Source of the DNA: Candidatus Micrarchaeota archaeon CG1_02_55_22
Lineage (GTDB): Archaea; Micrarchaeota; Micrarchaeia; Norongarragalinales; UBA97
Assembly (NCBI GenBank): GCA_001871595.1
Contig: MNVH01000011.1
Span: 1-61,659 of the forward strand
Reading direction: 5' to 3'
DNA: 61,659 nucleotides
Numbering within the stretch: the stretch's first letter is position 1; each line of letters opens with the position of its first letter. The notes beneath the pieces were generated by a model. It had not been told where the DNA came from. It saw only the letters and a list, made by a program, of their open reading frames with translations, and did no database searches. The position numbers were made by a program, and so were the translations under genes. Of this stretch, positions 3,591-15,600 are shown piece after piece.

Positions 3591-5498
3591 ATGGTGCTTC
3601 AACTAATGTCTACTATAAAAGAAATTGAGGAAGGCGTCGCGTCCGTAGTACCTGCAGAGTGCGGTCTATCTAAAGTCGAGTTTGAAGGGCCCCAAATCGT
3701 CATCTATTTGAAGAACATGGCGGCGTTCTACCGTGACGAGAACCTCATCACGAAGATCGCTTCCAAGCTCCGCAAGAAAGTCGTCCTCCGCAGCGACTCG
3801 AGCGTGCTCATGCCGCCCGAACGCGCCAAGGAACGCATTGAACAGCTCATTCCGCCCGAGGCCGGAGTCAAGGACATAAAGTTCGACGCGAGCTTCAACG
3901 AAGTCCAAATCGAGGCCATGAAACCAGGCGTCGTCATCGGTAAGGGCGGCAGCGTGCTCAAGAGCATTATCATCGCAACGGGCTGGTCGCCCAAAGTGCT
4001 GCGCTCGCCGACAATGCCTTCAGAGATTGAAGCCGCCATTCGAAACGCGCTTTTGAACAACAGCGAGCAACGCAAAAAGTTCTTACTCGGCCTCGGAAAG
4101 AAGATGACCGTTGCAAGCAACGGCTGCGAGTGGGTTAAAGTCACCGCGCTAGGCGGCTTCAAGGAAGTCGGCCGCAGTTGCTTCCTATTGCAGACGCCCG
4201 CGAGCAACGTGCTGGTTGACTGCGGAATCAACCCGGACACGAGCGACCCTTCAAAGAACTATCCTTACCTCAACGCCATGGGCATTTCCTTAGAGCAGCT
4301 TGACGCCGTCATCTTGAGCCACGCCCACCTCGATCATTGCGGTTTCATTCCGTACCTTTACGCTTACGGCTACGAAGGGCCTGTTTACTGTACCCCGCCC
4401 ACGCGCGACCTCATGGTATTGCTGCAGCAGGATGCGGTCAACATCATGCACTCCGAGCACGGCAAGTCGCCTTACGCCGAGAAGGACATCAAGAAACAAC
4501 TCAACCACGTCATCACGCGCGAGTACGGCGAAGTCACCGACGTCACGCCCGACGTGCGTTTCACGTTCCACAACGCCGGCCACATGCTTGGCTCGGCACA
4601 AATACACATGCACATCGGCGAAGGCTTCCATAATCTGGTCTATTCGGGTGACATAAAGTACGGTAAGACCAAGCTGTGCGATCCCGCGGTCACGAACTTC
4701 CCCCGCGTGGACACGCTCATGATGGAATCGACGTACGGGAGCCACTTGGACGTCAAGCCCCGCATTGAGGAGTGCGACAACCGTATTTACGACGTCATCA
4801 AGCGCACGACGGATGCAGGCGGCAAAGTCCTCATTCCAGTCATCGCCTCCGGCCGCGCACAGGAGATGATGCTCGTGCTCGAAGAAAAGTTCAAGGACCC
4901 CGACTTCCCCGTCTATTTCGATGGCCTCTCGAAAGAATCGAGCGCCATACATACAGTTTACCCCGAGTACTTGCGCCGCAACGTGCAACGCCGCATACTA
5001 CAGAACGACTCGCCTTTCGACAAGCCCATGTTCAACACGATTACCACGCGCGACAAGCGCAAGGGCATAGCGGAATCCAAAGACCCCGCGGTAATATTGG
5101 CGCCTAGCGGAATGCTTTCCGGCGGGCCCTCGGTTGAATTCCTCAAAATGATGGCAGACGACCCCAAGAACACGCTCATCTTCGTCGGCTACCAGGCCGC
5201 CCTGTCAATGGGCCGCAAGGTGCAGAACGGTGAACGTGATGTTCCCATACTCAACGAGCAGAACAAGCAGGACACGCTTAAAGTCAACATGAACGTCGTT
5301 ACCATTGACGGCTTTTCTGGTCACAGCGACTGGTCGCAGTTGCTCGCTTACGCCCGCAACGCCCGCCCGCGGCCCAACCGCATCTTCACCATGCACGGCG
5401 AGGCGTCTAAATGCGAAGAGCTCGCCCGCACACTCAACAAGATGCTGCACAGCGAGACGCGCGTGCCAATGCCGCTGGACACAATGCGGCTCAAGTAA
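3591..5498 (+). CDS. aCPSF1/FttA beta-CASP ribonuclease with N-terminal KH domains
   Basis: KH-like segments (VVIGKGGSVLKSII), the metallo-beta-lactamase motif LSHAHLDHCGFIP, and a beta-CASP C-terminal part ending ...FTMHGEASKCEELA. Length is 635 aa. Confidence 0.9.
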   Translation: MVLQLMSTIKEIEEGVASVVPAECGLSKVEFEGPQIVIYLKNMAAFYRDENLITKIASKLRKKVVLRSDSSVLMPPERAKERIEQLIPPEAGVKDIKFDASFNEVQIEAMKPGVVIGKGGSVLKSIIIATGWSPKVLRSPTMPSEIEAAIRNALLNNSEQRKKFLLGLGKKMTVASNGCEWVKVTALGGFKEVGRSCFLLQTPASNVLVDCGINPDTSDPSKNYPYLNAMGISLEQLDAVILSHAHLDHCGFIPYLYAYGYEGPVYCTPPTRDLMVLLQQDAVNIMHSEHGKSPYAEKDIKKQLNHVITREYGEVTDVTPDVRFTFHNAGHMLGSAQIHMHIGEGFHNLVYSGDIKYGKTKLCDPAVTNFPRVDTLMMESTYGSHLDVKPRIEECDNRIYDVIKRTTDAGGKVLIPVIASGRAQEMMLVLEEKFKDPDFPVYFDGLSKESSAIHTVYPEYLRRNVQRRILQNDSPFDKPMFNTITTRDKRKGIAESKDPAVILAPSGMLSGGPSVEFLKMMADDPKNTLIFVGYQAALSMGRKVQNGERDVPILNEQNKQDTLKVNMNVVTIDGFSGHSDWSQLLAYARNARPRPNRIFTMHGEASKCEELARTLNKMLHSETRVPMPLDTMRLK

Positions 5499-7499: not shown

Positions 7500-10400
7500 T
7501 CAAGTCACTTCCTTGTACGCGGGTGGCTTGCGGTTGTGCCACCAGAAACCGTACGCGAGCGTGATTAAAATTGCTATCCCCAACCCGCCCAGGGCGAGGT
7601 CCATCCCGTTGCCACCGCCCGACCCGTAAACGCCTGACGCGAGCGCCATTGCGGTAAACCACTTTCCGTTTTCCGCCAGCTGGAGCGCTTTCTCGGCCGC
7701 AGCCCTCTCCGAATCGCTGCCCGCGCGTCCAAGCGCGGCGTCGACGAGTTGTTTAGCATCTTCGGCGAGCGCCGCACTGCGCAACGACAGCTCGCGAGCC
7801 GCCTCCGTAAACGCGGCCGCGCGTCCCGACACAAAGTCGGCGTCGTATTCGTCTGCGACGATGCCACCGCTGCCATCCTCGCGTGCTAGATTAGCTAACT
7901 CACGTTCAAGCTTTACGGCTTTCTTCGCAGACTCCCGTGCAGCAGTTGCGGCTGGAAGCGATTTTGCGTACTCTTCCGCATCTACAAACGCAGCCTCGAC
8001 AGCACGGGCTTCCGCTAGTACGGATTCCCTTATGTTCATGTAGTCTTCTAGTGCCCGCTTGCGCGCCGACTTTTGTGCGGCGGCTTCGGCTTGCGCTTGC
8101 GAGAGTGCCGTGGCGGCTTTTACTGCAAGGCGGATTGATTGGGCGAGGTTTGCTTGCGCGAGCCGGACCGAGTTGGCCGAGTCGGCGAGTATTTGGGCGC
8201 ACGTTCGCCGCAGCACGTAGTCCTTTGAATCGCAATCGTTTTTTGTAACCGAAGCCAGTGACTTCAAGCTGCCTTCCGCGGCCTTTCGTGCGTTCTTGGC
8301 CGCAACGGTCTTTCCTTCGGTTGCCGCGTCAAGCATTTCTTCGAGCGCGGTGGCGAGTGCCTCGTCGTTCAAGTTTGTTGCGGCTTCAATCGCTTGGCGC
8401 GCTTCTTCCTCCAGCGCGAGTGCCTCTACTGGTAATTCGGGTGGTTCTGACGCGATTGCGTCCAATTCGGAGAGCGCTTCAAGCGTTTTTCCTTCCTTGA
8501 GCAATCCAGTTATCATTGCTTTTTGTGTGGCGTTTGCCGATGATTCGGAGAGCCTTGCTTGCGCGAGTGCTCCGAGCGGGTCGCAGTACGCCTCGTAATA
8601 TATCCTCTTTTTTTCGTCTTGGCCCAGCCTGAATGATACGAAAGCGTAGTGTCTTCCGCCGGAGTCGAACTGCGTTACCTTGTTCAAGTCCTGTCCCTTA
8701 ACCGTGAGCTTGCTGTTGGGGCACGCCGCGGGTTCGTCTATTGTAACCGTGGCCGAAGGTATCTCAACATCCAGAGAGTTTTCCACTTCGTACTCGTAGG
8801 AAATGGAGCTGTCAGTCGCGCTGATTATACTCTTCTTTGCGTGCAGTGGGTCGCGTACTAGGAAAGTGGCTTGTACAATGTTCTCTCCCTTGGCAAGCGG
8901 AACGTGCATCACCAATTCTTTACCGTTGTAGGAGTATGCGGTTGCCCCATCGGCAGACGCGGTCTCGGCGGAATAGTTTGTCGTTACCGTACCCGTTACG
9001 TCTTCGAACGCAGTTATGATGAACAAGCGCGTTACTACCGCGCTTTGAGCGTCGGCGCGTTCGACGGTTGTTTTTGACGAGCCGAGTTGTGCCGCCTTGC
9101 CGCGCGCGGTTACGGTAACCCAGTGAAGCTGGCCTTTTGCGGTAGTGTTTATCGTCATTCTTCCCGCAATAATGCTTGTTCCCGTGCTCGCTTGCCAGTC
9201 AACTATGCGGCCGGGCAACTTTCCAACGTAGAGTTCAACTCCTTGCGCGGGTCCGAGCGAGTTTTCGGCTGAAAATACTGCGTGAAATAATGTTTCTTCT
9301 CCGACCTGCGCTTCTTCGGCCGTAATCGTGGTCTCAAGTTTTTCTTGCAAGTGGGCTTCAACCAGGCTACGTGCTAGGGCAAGGTAGTTGGTGGTGATTG
9401 TGGTGAGTCGGGCGCGTGCTTGGCGCAATCGTCCGACGCTTTCGGGCAGGGGGCCGCGCATAGTGAAAAGCGTTTTTATTTCTTCTAACTCGTTGCGTTC
9501 CGCGTCGCTTGAAGGAATTGCTTCTTCGGCTTCGAACACTACCTCAGCGTATTCTGTCGCAGCTTTAGCCAGCACGCTTTCCTCTATCGCATCTAACCGT
9601 AGGAGTATCTGCGTTGCCGTTTCCGCGGTACCGGTTTCAAGCGCTTCGTTCGCCGCGGCGAGCGCGACTTCTTCTTCAGCAACGGACAGCGCGTCAGTTT
9701 TTGCGCGTAATACTAGGTCTTTGAGTTCGACGAGCCGTGCGCGTGCGGCTAGTACGGGCGCGTCGGGTTCACTTGCTAGCGCAGTGGCAGCCGCTATGTC
9801 TTTTAAGGCGCGGGCGAAGGACTGGATTCTTTCGCCGCGGGGCCTTTCCTCCGCGTTGGCCAGCGTTGCTTTCACGCGTTCGAGCAGTATCTTTGCTGCT
9901 TCTGCCGAGTATGTCTTGCTTGACAGCTCCCGCCGGGCCGCTTGTTCGGCGTTGGCCATTGCCGCGAGCGTGGCAGTTGAGAGCTGTGAGTCGAGTTGTT
10001 TGCTTGACGCGTCTATTGAGAGTACGATGCTGCGTGCCGCTGACAGGTTCGATATCGCTTGCCGGTAAAGCGCGGTTGCCTTTGCCGTGCTGCCGCGTGC
10101 TTTGGTTTTCTGCGTCCTTTCCGCGGAATCGCCCGTCGCCTGCGCTCGCGCCAACAATTGCCGCGCTTCAAGGAGTTGTTCACGGTACGATTTCGACTGG
10201 CTGCTTGTTGCGGTCCTCAATCCCGCGTCGAGCATTTCGAGGGATTCGGGCGAAATGTCTTCGAGGCGTTCTTTCTCCGAGTACTCCAAGGAGAGTTCGG
10301 CGAGCTTGTATTCACGTTCGAACGTTTCGCGGCCGTCCGCCGCTTCCTCTTCCAAGAGTATTAGCGCGTCCGAAGCCTTGTTGTCTAGAGTGATGACTTC

Positions 10401-11072
10401 GCGCAGGATTGAGTCTTCACCAATGAGGTCGCGCACTGGCTTTGAGAAGTCGCCTTTGCCTTCAATGGTCTTGTCCCACGCGTGCGTTACTCCTACCGCC
10501 GTTGTTTGAATGCGCGCGCCAAGGCTCTTAGGGTTAGTCGGGTTTTCTACCTGGGCCTTGATCGATTCGGCTTCCTCGAGAACACCAGTCGCCGCTCCCT
10601 CATAGCCCGCGTCCCGCGCGGCTTCGAGTTCGGCGAGTTTGGCGTCGGCTACGCCGAATGCTTCGCGCACGCTTCGCACGGCGAGCGAGAGCGCGGTGCT
10701 GCCTTTCATACTGCATTCGTAGGATAGATAGCTGAGCGTGAGCGGTGCGGCAGGGGTTATGGCGGCGTAGTCGCGTTGTATTTGTGCGAGCGTCCTTGCC
10801 GAGTCGAGCTCGAGTTTCGCCTTATACGCCAAATCAATTGCTGGAGCGAATTCTGGCCGCGCGCTTATACCGTTAGGCAGGTTGAATGGCTTTACGTAGT
10901 TGCCGCAGTATTCAGTAGTAAGGTAGTAGTAGGATATGTCGGGCGGCTGGGGTTGGAATAGGTGTGAGTATTCGGAGAGAGCGGCAGCGTTGGACGCGAG
11001 TAACAGGATTGCCAGAAGCAGGGCGGGCTTCAACTCGCGCACAATCCTCCCGTGCAGTTCGTGCTGTTGCAC
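7500..11072 (-). CDS. Giant (about 1190 aa) alanine-rich, largely helical surface protein with a C-terminal membrane anchor
   Basis: N-terminal signal-like segment RELKPALLLAILLLASNAAALS. Two long Ala/Glu/Leu-rich helical regions flank a beta-rich middle part (VELYVGKLPGRIVDWQ...YYEAYCDP). The C-terminus has a Gly-rich stretch, a TM helix (LALGGLGIAILITLAYGFWW) and a basic tail. The GTG start at 11072 overlaps the upstream pilin-like gene; the in-frame GTG at 11042 is an alternative. Confidence 0.7.
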   Translation of the reverse strand: MQQHELHGRIVRELKPALLLAILLLASNAAALSEYSHLFQPQPPDISYYYLTTEYCGNYVKPFNLPNGISARPEFAPAIDLAYKAKLELDSARTLAQIQRDYAAITPAAPLTLSYLSYECSMKGSTALSLAVRSVREAFGVADAKLAELEAARDAGYEGAATGVLEEAESIKAQVENPTNPKSLGARIQTTAVGVTHAWDKTIEGKGDFSKPVRDLIGEDSILREVITLDNKASDALILLEEEAADGRETFEREYKLAELSLEYSEKERLEDISPESLEMLDAGLRTATSSQSKSYREQLLEARQLLARAQATGDSAERTQKTKARGSTAKATALYRQAISNLSAARSIVLSIDASSKQLDSQLSTATLAAMANAEQAARRELSSKTYSAEAAKILLERVKATLANAEERPRGERIQSFARALKDIAAATALASEPDAPVLAARARLVELKDLVLRAKTDALSVAEEEVALAAANEALETGTAETATQILLRLDAIEESVLAKAATEYAEVVFEAEEAIPSSDAERNELEEIKTLFTMRGPLPESVGRLRQARARLTTITTNYLALARSLVEAHLQEKLETTITAEEAQVGEETLFHAVFSAENSLGPAQGVELYVGKLPGRIVDWQASTGTSIIAGRMTINTTAKGQLHWVTVTARGKAAQLGSSKTTVERADAQSAVVTRLFIITAFEDVTGTVTTNYSAETASADGATAYSYNGKELVMHVPLAKGENIVQATFLVRDPLHAKKSIISATDSSISYEYEVENSLDVEIPSATVTIDEPAACPNSKLTVKGQDLNKVTQFDSGGRHYAFVSFRLGQDEKKRIYYEAYCDPLGALAQARLSESSANATQKAMITGLLKEGKTLEALSELDAIASEPPELPVEALALEEEARQAIEAATNLNDEALATALEEMLDAATEGKTVAAKNARKAAEGSLKSLASVTKNDCDSKDYVLRRTCAQILADSANSVRLAQANLAQSIRLAVKAATALSQAQAEAAAQKSARKRALEDYMNIRESVLAEARAVEAAFVDAEEYAKSLPAATAARESAKKAVKLERELANLAREDGSGGIVADEYDADFVSGRAAAFTEAARELSLRSAALAEDAKQLVDAALGRAGSDSERAAAEKALQLAENGKWFTAMALASGVYGSGGGNGMDLALGGLGIAILITLAYGFWWHNRKPPAYKEVT

Positions 11073-12588: not shown

Positions 12589-12837
12589 CTAGATTAGGAA
12601 GAAGAGTACCATGGTTATGAAGATGGCTACTGCGAATTGGGTTGAGACGTAGGCGAGCGCTGCTAGGGCAAGGGGCCCGCCTATCGCGTATAATTGCAGG
12701 TCGGGGTAGTAGGTGGCGACGTGTATGCCGACGACGATTCCGAGCGTGTATACTAGGAAGATGAACGCCGTAAACTTGCGGACTGTTTCCGAAATGTTGT
12801 CTATGAGGCGCTGGGCGAGCTCGTTCAGGATTCCCAT
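12589..12837 (-). CDS. Small hypothetical membrane protein
   Basis: 82 aa with two or three hydrophobic helices (FIFLVYTLGIVVGIHV, GGPLALAALAYV, FAVAIFITMVLFFLI). No family recognised. Confidence 0.5.
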   Translation of the reverse strand: MGILNELAQRLIDNISETVRKFTAFIFLVYTLGIVVGIHVATYYPDLQLYAIGGPLALAALAYVSTQFAVAIFITMVLFFLI

Positions 12838-12894: not shown

Positions 12895-15600
12895 CTATTT
12901 GTACCGTAGGAATGCGCCGATGCCGCCGAAGGTGCCTTTGAATGTGGAGCCTTCAGCGGTTTCGATTGAGACGCGGTCGATTGGTATGCCGGCGGTTTCA
13001 GCGATTTTCTGCAGTTCGTCGGCGAGGTTGTTGCTTTCTTTGGTTTTGAGTTTTCCGCCGCACTCGCACTCTTCCTCATCGTTGTCCTCGTCGCTCATCA
13101 GCGTTTTTTCATTGTTGCAGTTGGCGCACACGAGCTTGTTCTCGTACAAGTAGAGGTCTTCGGCCAGTAGCAACCGTTCGGCTTGGCCGCTTTCAAGCGT
13201 TTTCTTTACCTGTCGGTAGCCGTACGTTGCCAAGCCGTTGGTGACGACTTCCTTGATGAACCTGTCGACGAGCTGTTTCTCGACGACTGCCTCGTGCTCT
13301 TTCATGAGGTCGCTGCCCTTGTCGATGACTTCGCGCAAGCCGTACTCGTCCGTGTAGCTGGTGTCCACCATTCCCAAAATCTTAAGTTGGTAGTTGTACG
13401 TCTTTTCCTTGAGGAAATCCTCCTTAGCCGGGCCGGGGCCGCCGACGATGACGCCTTTCATGTTTTTATAGGTTAGAAAAGAGTCCATTGCTTCGCCGAT
13501 GCGCTTCTGGTAATACTCGATTCCTTCCTCGCGCAAGCGCCCGTAGCGTTGTGACGAGTTGTGGGCGATTATCCCTTGGGCGATAAAGTTCTCGTTGCCG
13601 GGTATTTCAAGGTCGTAGAAGTTTATTCCTTCGGCGGGTGCGTTTTCTATTGATTCAATGCGGGCAATGGTGGCATCGGATTCGGCGTATTGGTTGAGCA
13701 TTTCCTTGTTTTCTTCGGGTAGTGTGGATGCGAGTTCGAGCAGGTAGTTTCTTCCAAGCAGCCGCGTGCCTGAGAGAAAGGGCTGGAATCTTGCCCGAAC
13801 AATTGCGTTCAGTCCTTTGTTTTTGACGAGCTTGGCGGTAAACTTGCCGTTTATTGGTGCATGGTTGGCTTGGCTTTTGCTCGTATTGGCTTCAAGCAGC
13901 CTTTCTAGTTTGGCGTTCTTTTCAGTGCTTGTTAAGCCGATCTGTACTTTGAACGCTTCAAGTTCGTTCCTTCCGCGAAACACTATAGTGTATTGCGGTT
14001 TGTAACGGGTTTTTTTGTGTAGTACGGAGGTAACAATGCCGAAGCGTTGTAGCATTAGCGCTATTTGTCGGACAAGTCTTTCGTTTATCATGCTTAAGCC
14101 AATTCCTCGCACGCTGACGTTTCCTTCCGCGTCAAAGATGCCTCGCAGGAATGCTGATGCGATTTCGTCAGGGGCGGACATTATACGCGCAGGAATGCTT
14201 CGCGCCAAGCCTTTGGCAGTGGCTTCGGGAAAGTTGGTTCGTAAGTATTCTGTTAGTGCCAAACTGTAGGCGCGTGTCTCGATGTATCTTTCACCGAAGC
14301 CCGTAGAACGCCGCCTTTCGCGTAAGCTAGTATTAACGCCGAGGTTCTCTGTTAGTATTTCCCGGTAATAGTTCGCCACTTCCAGACGGTCTTCGTAGAG
14401 TGTTATTCGGTTGCGTTCAGTGGTACCATCTCCTATCAGGTAGCCGAGTAGTTGCGCGAGTTCTGGTGTAAGGTTTGTTGGCAGGTTTGCGCCGCGGACT
14501 GAAACGTTTTCGTAGAATTCTTCAGGCAACCCGTAAAACGAGACGAGTTCTCCGAGTTTTTGAATGCTTTGGCGCTTCCCGGTTTCAAGGTTTGATATGC
14601 TCATCTGTTCACAGCCGAGAGATTCGGCTACTGTTTGTTGAGTCAGGCCGCGGGTTGTGCGGACCTTTTTCAGTATCAAGCGCCCGGCTTCCGAAACCAC
14701 TGCTTCTACTCGAGGCATTGTGAGCGGGGGGTTTATTGAAGTTATACGAAGTTTGCTTGTAAGTAGGAGCAGGTCGCCCTTTTTGAGTTCGCACGCGAGC
14801 TTTTCCTCCGTTCCCGTCTCAGTCTCACAGAAGAACCGGTGTTCGTTGGTTGCTATTAATTCGGTTGTCGGACTGCGAGTCCGAATTCTAAGCGCGTGGG
14901 GTGCAGTTCTAGCGTAAACGTTTGTGCACTCAGCAGGTTCAATCATTTGTTTTTTGAAATTATAAGAGAGTACGGACTCTCCGGGCTTAACGTCGCGTAT
15001 TTCTTTTATAGTTCCATCCGCCATTTGGACTAGCGTCTTTTCGTGTAGACACTGTCCGCCTTTGTGAGTTTTGCTGTGCGCGGTGGAGTGGATTTGCTTG
15101 ATTACCTTGATTTGTTTGCCGACGAGCGCGGCAATGGTTGCTTCCTTGCCATCCATAACAACCAGGCCGTACGTGTCGGTGGTGTTGATAAGCTCGTTGA
15201 GTGGTTCGAGTACGAACATTGATTCGCACCGATAGAATTGTGTGACAATGGGCACGGGCGGGATGACGGAATAGAGTTCGACGTCGGGACGGCCTTCGAC
15301 TTCCGAGACGTTGCCTGCAAAGACTGCCATGCCCATATCGGGCGTGGTTTTGAACGTCTTTAGGTATTGCATTATCTTGTCGAGCGCGGCCTGTACGTTT
15401 TTCTTTGTCGAGGCGCTCTTGATGTTGCTTGCCTGCCCGTACTCCTCTTTGAGTTTACCAGTAATGTCGCTTATGGGGTAGCCGGGCGTCATATAGACGC
15501 TTACTAGTTCGGTGCCGCGGCCGCGGAACTTCTTTAGCGCCTCAACTTGTTTCTTGAATTCGTATAACGCGAGTGACTTATTGTCGTTGCTTGCAGCCAT
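12895..15600 (-). CDS. prf1: Peptide chain release factor aRF1, interrupted by an intein
   Basis: The N-extein has NIKS (GQASNIKSASTKKN) and ends ...THKGGQ. The C-extein begins SSQRYGRLREEG... and carries a CxxC...CxC mini zinc-ribbon. The exteins total 403 aa (183 + 220). Confidence 0.9.
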   Translation of the reverse strand: MAASNDNKSLALYEFKKQVEALKKFRGRGTELVSVYMTPGYPISDITGKLKEEYGQASNIKSASTKKNVQAALDKIMQYLKTFKTTPDMGMAVFAGNVSEVEGRPDVELYSVIPPVPIVTQFYRCESMFVLEPLNELINTTDTYGLVVMDGKEATIAALVGKQIKVIKQIHSTAHSKTHKGGQCLHEKTLVQMADGTIKEIRDVKPGESVLSYNFKKQMIEPAECTNVYARTAPHALRIRTRSPTTELIATNEHRFFCETETGTEEKLACELKKGDLLLLTSKLRITSINPPLTMPRVEAVVSEAGRLILKKVRTTRGLTQQTVAESLGCEQMSISNLETGKRQSIQKLGELVSFYGLPEEFYENVSVRGANLPTNLTPELAQLLGYLIGDGTTERNRITLYEDRLEVANYYREILTENLGVNTSLRERRRSTGFGERYIETRAYSLALTEYLRTNFPEATAKGLARSIPARIMSAPDEIASAFLRGIFDAEGNVSVRGIGLSMINERLVRQIALMLQRFGIVTSVLHKKTRYKPQYTIVFRGRNELEAFKVQIGLTSTEKNAKLERLLEANTSKSQANHAPINGKFTAKLVKNKGLNAIVRARFQPFLSGTRLLGRNYLLELASTLPEENKEMLNQYAESDATIARIESIENAPAEGINFYDLEIPGNENFIAQGIIAHNSSQRYGRLREEGIEYYQKRIGEAMDSFLTYKNMKGVIVGGPGPAKEDFLKEKTYNYQLKILGMVDTSYTDEYGLREVIDKGSDLMKEHEAVVEKQLVDRFIKEVVTNGLATYGYRQVKKTLESGQAERLLLAEDLYLYENKLVCANCNNEKTLMSDEDNDEEECECGGKLKTKESNNLADELQKIAETAGIPIDRVSIETAEGSTFKGTFGGIGAFLRYK
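13558..15051 (-). mobile_element. Intein (498 aa) with LAGLIDADG homing-endonuclease and XRE-type HTH modules
   Basis: Cys1 in CLHEKTLVQMADG, block B TNEH, LAGLIDADG motifs LLGYLIGDGT and FLRGIFDAEGN, block F FYDLEIPGNENFIA, and terminal GIIAHN followed by Ser+1. Boundaries were checked at codon level: GGC GGA CAG|TGT at 15060-15049 and CAC AAC|TCG at 13563-13555. Confidence 0.85.

Follow-up and report, generated by a model that had tools for sequence, protein, structure and literature searches.

An intein directly behind the catalytic glutamine of archaeal release factor aRF1 in a Micrarchaeota genome

How can a release factor end translation when its gene is interrupted straight after the codon for the catalytic glutamine? 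This question is raised by the gene for the class-I release factor aRF1 in Candidatus Micrarchaeota archaeon CG1_02_55_22, carried on contig MNVH01000011.1 (assembly GCA_001871595.1), which we analysed as a single stretch of 61,659 nucleotides (hereafter, the window). Inteins are concentrated in replication and repair proteins; the insert in this gene is a real intein, beyond chance resemblance. We consider it highly probable that it is a genuine, splicing-competent intein of class 1, with a resident LAGLIDADG endonuclease and an XRE-type helix-turn-helix (HTH), lying at Gln183/Ser (a slash marks the splice junction throughout) of an essential aRF1 in a Micrarchaeota-like member of the DPANN archaea.

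Removing a 498-residue insert restores a complete aRF1

The gene is a single open reading frame (ORF) on the minus strand, with the following parts:

12895..15600, minus strand: aRF1 precursor ORF (N-extein, intein and C-extein), 901 aa, stop codon included; 410 bits on TIGR03676
15052..15600, minus strand: N-extein, aa 1-183, with domain N (NIKS, YxCxxxF) and the start of domain M, ending ...KTHKGGQ; PF03463 eRF1_1 over aa 18-137
15052..15060, minus strand: GGQ codons, aa 181-183, Gln183 being the -1 residue of the splice junction; re-translation
13558..15051, minus strand: intein of 498 aa, class 1, from Cys1 to His-Asn, precursor aa 184-681; profiles, alignment, model and fold search
12895..13557, minus strand: C-extein, aa 682-901, with Ser+1 (13555..13557), the remainder of domain M, domain C and the stop codon; translation and Pfam

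Translation of 13558..15051 on the minus strand gives a 498-aa insert running from CLHEKTLVQMADG to FIAQGIIAHN, preceded by ...AHSKTHKGGQ, with Gln183 as its last residue, and followed by SSQRYGRLREEG. A first-pass annotation of the window had described this gene as a 901-aa aRF1 ORF with a 498-aa insert straight after GGQ, and re-translation and profile matches agree on that description. The motifs it had listed (Cys1, TNEH, two LAGLIDADG motifs and GIIAHN, then Ser+1) were all recovered at their coordinates on re-translation.

The same annotation had proposed that excising 13558-15051 yields a contiguous 403-aa aRF1, and the joined exteins, whose junction reads ...THKGGQSSQRYGR, bear this out with an end-to-end match to the TIGR03676 aRF1 equivalog (positions 2-402 of 403, 437.5 bits, cut-off 234.7). 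All three eRF1 domains (PF03463, PF03464 and PF03465) are matched by the joined exteins, and domain 2, which is split in the precursor, becomes one continuous Pfam match (2-132 of 133). The protein carries the aRF1 signature motifs NIKS (aa 59-62), YRCESMF (aa 123-129) and GGQ (aa 181-183); N59, K61, Y123, C125, F129, G181, G182 and Q183 are invariant in the aRF1 alignment, and I60 and S62 are conserved to at least 90%. An intein-free orthologue of the same 403-aa length exists (P0121, 72% identity).

The splicing residues are invariant

The two lobes of the splicing domain flank the remainder of the insert:

14722..15051, minus strand: N-terminal splicing (Hint) lobe, intein aa 1-110, with Cys1 at 15049..15051 and block B TNEH at 14839..14850; TIGR01445 intein_Nterm over aa 1-74
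13558..13656, minus strand: C-terminal splicing lobe with blocks F and G (…INFYDLEIPGNENFIAQGIIAHN), containing the FYDLEIPGNENFIAQGIIAHN motif; TIGR01443 intein_Cterm, 25.9 bits

A check of the insert against Hint/intein and LAGLIDADG profiles places all four profiles above their curated cut-offs: Pfam Intein_splicing (PF14890) at 72.7 bits (cut-off 35.8), NCBIfam intein_Nterm (TIGR01445) at 26.5 bits (cut-off 24.5), intein_Cterm (TIGR01443) at 25.9 bits (cut-off 15.6) and LAGLIDADG_3 (PF14528) at 85.1 bits in 2 stretches (cut-off 22.5).

To assess conservation, we aligned 92 aRF1s, 86 with an intein and 6 without. Cys184, the first residue of the intein (Cys1), is a cysteine in 86/86 of the intein-bearing homologues and at 120/120 of the junctions listed from the precursor search described below. 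Block B TNEH spans precursor aa 251-254; its His254 is kept in 86/86, and all 86 have Thr or Ser at the first position of TxxH. Block F D663 and the terminal H680 and N681 are likewise kept in all 86. On the host side, G181, G182, Q183 and Ser682 (+1) are invariant in 92/92, intein-free alleles included. Profiles, alignment and structure concur that the -1 extein residue is the catalytic GGQ glutamine itself, as had been proposed from the sequence.

An AlphaFold model of the precursor, built on the 92-sequence alignment, has a mean predicted local distance difference test score (pLDDT) of 91.6, with the Hint lobe modelled as a beta-strand region at pLDDT >90. Its best match in the PDB is the TliVMA intein (E=1.6e-24, TMt 0.76), followed by aRF1 (4af1, E=1.8e-23), PI-PkoII, PI-PfuI and then ribosome-bound eRF1. 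Low confidence is confined to the first four residues and to 175-181, the loop before GGQ; the latter fits a flexible GGQ loop that, in the model, would be tethered to the intein active site.

The solved class-1 inteins PI-PfuI (1DQ3), TliVMA and PhoVMA (7QSS-7QSU), PI-PkoII (2CW7) and yeast PI-SceI share with the aRF1 intein the Hint plus LAGLIDADG architecture and fold, as well as Cys1, TxxH, HN and the +1 nucleophile. Similarity to them ranges from E 3.5e-10 to 1e-9 by sequence and from 1e-24 to 1e-19 by fold (TMt 0.62-0.80). The aRF1 intein differs from them in its host site, aRF1 GGQ/S, and in an XRE-type HTH that they lack at the corresponding point.

The interrupted gene shows the marks of a gene in use

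The closest relative by exteins is another intein-bearing aRF1 (P0004; 95-97% aa and 88% nt identity). Between the two sets of exteins we counted 119 synonymous and 16 non-synonymous codon differences. Because this reflects strong purifying selection on the exteins, both aRF1 genes are taken to be in use, and such selection would make sense only if the precursor matures to active aRF1. With the splicing residues invariant and the exteins so constrained, splicing of the 901-aa precursor is very likely.

These data also bear on a very improbable alternative, in which the gene is dead: splicing would fail, leaving the 901-aa product inactive, and the work would fall to an aRF1 encoded at another place in the genome. 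The visible part of the genome is 61.7 kb, so a second copy is conceivable. Searching the window by tblastn, with extein and intein as queries, reveals no second aRF1 and no second intein, in keeping with the first-pass statement that only one aRF1 is visible, and it is plausible that the organism has no other. Several lines of evidence argue against a dead gene. First, the frame is intact over 2.7 kb and all splicing residues are kept. Second, the excess of synonymous over non-synonymous differences to P0004 is that of a functional protein. Third, the gene occupies a conserved position between seryl-tRNA synthetase (SerRS) and TruD that holds the single intein-free aRF1 of relatives. Finally, the 80 best aRF1 loci from species-representative genomes all come from different assemblies.

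A proposed maturation pathway

From the conserved residues and chemistry of class-1 inteins, the following pathway can be proposed. Translation would yield the 901-aa precursor, in which Cys1 (Cys184) would attack the carbonyl of Gln183 in an N-S acyl shift. The N-extein would then pass to the hydroxyl of Ser682 (+1) by trans-esterification, and cyclisation of the terminal Asn (intein 498, precursor 681), assisted by the preceding His (497/680), would free the intein. An O-N shift would finally create a native Gln-Ser bond and a 403-aa aRF1 with an intact GGQS loop.

Until then, the GGQ loop would be unable to enter the peptidyl-transferase centre or to receive its N5-methyl group from Mtq2. 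As the active site of the intein would hold the loop buried and covalently bound, the precursor is expected neither to hydrolyse peptidyl-tRNA nor to serve as a substrate of Mtq2. N5-methylation of the aRF1 GGQ glutamine has been shown experimentally in Haloferax volcanii (PMC6144793), and by analogy the glutamine would be methylated in the organism studied here. Together, sequence conservation and the structural model support the view that this aRF1 would need protein splicing before it becomes active.

An endonuclease domain and a putative DNA-binding module reside in the intein

Between the splicing lobes, the intein carries a homing-endonuclease domain and, upstream of it in the protein, a putative DNA-binding module:

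13852..14484, minus strand: LAGLIDADG homing-endonuclease domain, intein aa about 190-400; PF14528
14422..14451, minus strand: LAGLIDADG motif 1, LLGYLIGDGT; re-translation
14119..14151, minus strand: LAGLIDADG motif 2, FLRGIFDAEGN; re-translation
14518..14673, minus strand: XRE/Cro-type HTH module, intein aa 127-178; PF01381 HTH_3 and HTH_31

By its sequence, the first of these is a LAGLIDADG homing endonuclease of the double-motif, monomeric type, with each helix ending in a predicted catalytic acid and a Gly. The two acidic positions are Asp or Glu in 69/72 and 71/73 of the aligned endonuclease-bearing homologues, and the window has both. The region matches PI-PfuI and the TliVMA intein by sequence, and 7qss by fold (TMt 0.76). 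The free intein would be expected to act as a site-specific endonuclease that cuts intein-free aRF1 alleles.

The HTH module, absent from the earlier sequence-only annotation, sits after the N-terminal splicing lobe and ahead of the endonuclease. It scores 31.6 bits on HTH_3 (PF01381, cut-off 23) and 31.8 bits on HTH_31 (cut-off 27), and resembles the phage 434 repressor (E=1.2e-3) and controller proteins of restriction-modification systems (E about 1e-3). In the precursor model, the segment 304-365 forms a bundle of five short helices with pLDDT 82-96 over 10-residue blocks; modelled alone from a single sequence it reaches pLDDT 55.8, too low for a fold search. The assignment to the XRE/Cro-C1 type thus draws on Pfam, on sequence matches in the PDB and on the confident precursor model. 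HMMER alignments place about 85 residues between the Hint lobe and the endonuclease here, compared with about 18 in TliVMA, and we regard the HTH as an extra module because the closest solved inteins have little room at that point. It probably adds DNA contacts, like the accessory DNA-binding regions of other homing enzymes.

Inteins related to that of the window, with an XRE-type HTH, also occur in other hosts: FttA/aCPSF1 (P0273), GlmS (P0288) and a protein of unknown family (P0293). They resemble the aRF1 intein in showing full-length similarity together with Pfam HTH_3/HTH_31, LAGLIDADG_3 and Intein_splicing matches, and differ from it in their exteins and insertion sites. No intein interrupts the FttA gene of the window itself (3591..5498). 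In two aRF1 inteins (P0053 and P0374) the HTH is placed after the endonuclease rather than before it, indicating that the position of the module is variable.

The aRF1 intein is common in DPANN archaea

A search with the precursor returned 138 proteins at E<=1e-10. Among the 120 matches listed, with clusters counted at 90% identity, every one combines eRF1 domains with intein domains. The N-terminal junction reads GGQ/C in 119/120 and GGM/C in 1/120, and the C-terminal junction reads HN/S in all 117 that reach it, three proteins being truncated. More than 100 clusters from NCBI, JGI, ENA and Logan assemblies have an intein exactly at GGQ/S. Their sources name the carriers as Micrarchaeota, Iainarchaeota/Diapherotrites, Woese-, Pace-, Nano- and Aenigmatarchaeota, Nanohaloarchaea and, for one metagenome-assembled genome, Thaumarchaeota; the closest among the matches listed are Micrarchaeota, with up to 58% identity across the whole precursor. 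The aRF1 GGQ/S intein is common in DPANN archaea and not a rarity.

The alleles fall into three length classes: mini-inteins of about 130-166 aa, inteins of about 415-457 aa with an endonuclease and no HTH, and inteins of about 486-646 aa with both. Mini-inteins, which lack the endonuclease, account for about 24/117 alleles among the matches listed. In the best 80 aRF1 loci of species-representative genomes, 30 have an intein at GGQ/S and 50 do not, a set that ranks intein-bearing genes higher and hence gives no estimate of prevalence; each assembly is represented at most once. A search with the extein returns mainly intein-free proteins (111 of the 120 best matches). A scan of viral contigs for close relatives of the aRF1 intein found none, and a pattern-based scan of species-representative genomes gave two irrelevant intein matches, its patterns being too specific where the alignment-based scan succeeded.

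This distribution makes it extremely improbable that a chimeric contig has placed a foreign intein in aRF1 by faulty assembly. That the window is a metagenome contig, taken whole at 61,659 bp, speaks for such an error, but GGQ/C ... HN/S junctions recur in more than 100 independent clusters. They include two closed genomes with an uninterrupted intein-bearing aRF1, CP058998.1 (Ca. Fermentimicrarchaeum limneticum) and CP045477.1 (Ca. Forterrea multitransposorum). Furthermore, the frame in the window is continuous and the exteins join perfectly.

A second aRF1 intein site was found inside the YxCxxxF stop-codon-recognition motif of domain N in three cases (P0235, P0248 and L025, the last on VBPK01000067.1 of Thaumarchaeota TA_8). 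Its junctions read YLYM/C...HN/CDDH, with the motif cysteine serving as +1 nucleophile. All three also carry the GGQ/S intein, and in L025 the first intein begins near locus position 1500. Both aRF1 insertion sites fall in signature motifs; the window is without an intein at the YxCxxxF site.

Full, mini and empty alleles suggest a homing cycle

The gene order SerRS, aRF1 and an ORF of 82-83 aa is common to the window and two related loci (L003 and L006). The next gene in both the window and L006 is TruD; the L003 contig ends before a gene can be identified there. At this shared position the window has the 498-aa intein, L003 (P0004) a 151-aa mini-intein and L006 (P0121) no intein at all, its uninterrupted junction reading ...AAGGGCGGACAG/TCCGCGGCGCGC.... 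Full, mini and empty alleles at one position are the pattern expected of a homing cycle. The GGQ-coding part of the intein-free site hardly varies among relatives (AAR GGN GGN CAR/TCN or AGY). The free intein would cut this conserved ...AAR GGN GGN CAR/TCN... site and copy itself in through repair, and the HTH would add or extend DNA contacts at the target. As a catalytic motif that never varies, in a gene the cell needs, GGQ/S is the kind of site where inteins typically find refuge: imprecise deletion there would be lethal.

Two further ORFs are found near the gene. The 82-83 aa ORF just downstream of aRF1 (12589..12837 on the minus strand of the window, 3182-3430 in L003 and 3407-3658 in L006) has a hydrophobic, membrane-like sequence and no Pfam match. 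An ORF of 1190 aa just downstream of TruD (7500..11072, minus strand) matches no Pfam family at E<=1e-5.

Across the family, extein and Hint identity correlate loosely (r=0.57), with outliers in both directions: one pair (P0014/P0040) has exteins 92% and Hint domains 25% identical, and another (P0073/P0094) has exteins 62% and Hint domains 80% identical. As judged from these identities, such incongruence indicates replacement and transfer events in the family. We do not claim an independent invasion for the window and P0004, whose exteins are 96% and Hint domains 65% identical; fast vertical divergence could suffice, and is feasible because the hosts differ at many synonymous positions. The first 32 intein residues, near-identical in these two, are conserved family-wide.

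The first-pass annotation had also noted by eye an A/T-rich insert and had taken this to fit a mobile origin. The compositional part of that claim holds: G+C content is 0.491 in the intein versus 0.527 in the exteins, and G+C content at third codon positions (GC3) is 0.508 versus 0.700, with all 25 other window ORFs that were measured above the intein (mean GC3 0.647, sd 0.046, minimum 0.558). The support for mobility does not, as the offset is family-wide. The GC3 of the aRF1 intein is below that of the exteins in 15/17 other genomes (mean difference -0.09, loci L009-L030), and, running from 0.07 to 0.69, it follows host GC3 across these 17 genomes (host range 0.08 to 0.87). We therefore rejected low GC3 as a mark of recent horizontal arrival. 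The offset looks like a systematic shift in codon usage within one ORF, with weaker codon constraint on the intein.

Several points weigh against reading the element as a spliced and still mobile intein in the only aRF1 of its host. Compared with its nearest intein relatives (P0002 and P0003), the window shows intein and exteins equally diverged, at ~60% identity each, and this comparison gives no sign of recent transfer into the window lineage. The lowered GC3 of the intein, a family-wide trait, likewise carries no mark of recent arrival. We infer splicing and endonuclease activity from conservation, and the role of the HTH is a predicted one. Finally, a second, intein-free aRF1 may lie outside the 61.7-kb window.

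The equal divergence from P0002 and P0003 (Hint 0.60, endonuclease 0.59-0.61, exteins 0.61-0.62) is also what one would expect of a resident relic, an intein that splices but whose endonuclease no longer homes, inherited vertically since its loss from GGQ would kill aRF1. This is possible, if on balance doubtful. The tracking of host GC3 by the intein agrees with it, as does the loss of the endonuclease already seen in the mini-inteins. Against it, both catalytic acids and both LAGLIDADG helices of the window's endonuclease are intact, as they are in about 95% of full-length relatives, and the region is modelled at pLDDT >90. Elsewhere in the family, incongruence between exteins and inteins and empty sites in close relatives point to continuing turnover.

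The persistence of the allele across many DPANN phyla, even as mini-inteins without the selfish function of homing, could also hint at domestication. Splicing would then be conditional on redox state, temperature, nutrients or the state of the ribosome and would gate active aRF1, and the released HTH-intein might be a DNA-binding regulator, a thought to which an HTH of the XRE repressor type lends itself. Other archaeal inteins are known to splice conditionally (PMC11409957, in part). If such a switch existed, termination in reduced-genome DPANN symbionts would depend on protein splicing. We regard it as improbable. Known switch features are not seen, the +1 residue not being Cys and the alignment consensus having no conserved extra Cys pair; many close relatives are intein-free, as the extein search shows; and the cost of imprecise excision from an invariant catalytic site fully explains retention. 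It is equally hard to credit that aRF1 in DPANN archaea is held catalytically silent and unmethylatable until a conditional splicing step. A conventional class-1 intein with a resident endonuclease remains the reading that we prefer.

Some aRF1s lack the GGQ glutamine

The single GGM/C junction belongs to a clade in which the glutamine itself is replaced. A search with a GGM-type extein gave, among the best 120 clusters (55-70% identity), GGM in 118, GGF in 2 and GGQ in 0; a pattern tally counted 116 GGM, and two unmatched sequences read GGM on inspection. Sources name the carriers Aenigmatarchaeota. Members of the clade comprise the loci L007 (10001-12769), L008, L034, L038, L043, L057, L059, L090 (6001-7290) and L092 (6001-7215) and the proteins P0053, P0374 and P0377-P0496; some have an intein (GGM/C) and most have none. 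One relative (L059) reads GGW. A single intein-free Micrarchaeota gene (L082; JAJZMY010000037.1, MAS3.bin46) reads KGGA/SAGRYER, where a sequencing error is possible.

Six of the GGM aRF1s match the TIGR03676 equivalog end to end with 462-474 bits, and the methionine is encoded by ATG in independent assemblies. Immediately upstream of these genes is a class-I aminoacyl-tRNA synthetase, and TatD is close by. A GGQ-type aRF1 of Aenigmatarchaeota (L089) occupies the equivalent position (class-I aminoacyl-tRNA synthetase, then aRF1, and TatD further on), and because the position is the same, the GGM genes look like orthologous aRF1 rather than an extra paralogue. Methionine cannot be N5-methylated. 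A full-text literature search for GGM together with GGQ returned nothing relevant. A clade with GGM in place of the "universal" GGQ may be more surprising than the intein.

An established type of intein in an unusual host site

Full-text literature searches aimed at an intein in aRF1 or eRF1 found no paper describing one, although publication elsewhere remains possible, and the Anaeramoeba intein paper mentions no release-factor intein. According to the survey of Novikova et al. [quoted passage not shown] The aIF2/IF-2 intein likewise interrupts a conserved functional site of a core archaeal translation factor (PMC4760082, in part); the intein described here differs in its aRF1 host and in having the catalytic, presumably methylated glutamine itself as the -1 residue.

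The sequences are public, and JGI product names already read "eRF1/intein/homing endonuclease" for some homologues, so the aRF1 intein is undescribed in papers rather than unseen. Many such aRF1 genes are named "LAGLIDADG family homing endonuclease", "helix-turn-helix domain-containing protein" or "hypothetical protein" at NCBI (P0009, P0011, P0015, P0019 and P0044). Under such names the essential release factor goes practically unannotated in the DPANN genomes concerned, and pipelines that rely on marker genes or estimate completeness may therefore overlook it.

The biological surprise is moderate because the mechanism is textbook: this is a conventional intein in an unusual, functionally striking host site. 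Through it, a class-I release factor joins the list of intein hosts, with the insertion placed in the peptide-release motif and the catalytic, presumably methylated glutamine as the -1 residue. The full, endonuclease-only, mini and empty states found across more than 100 clusters offer a natural system for the homing cycle in uncultivated archaea. They also supply a varied set of inteins that accept a Gly-Gly-Gln (or Met/Trp) N-terminal junction and use Ser+1.

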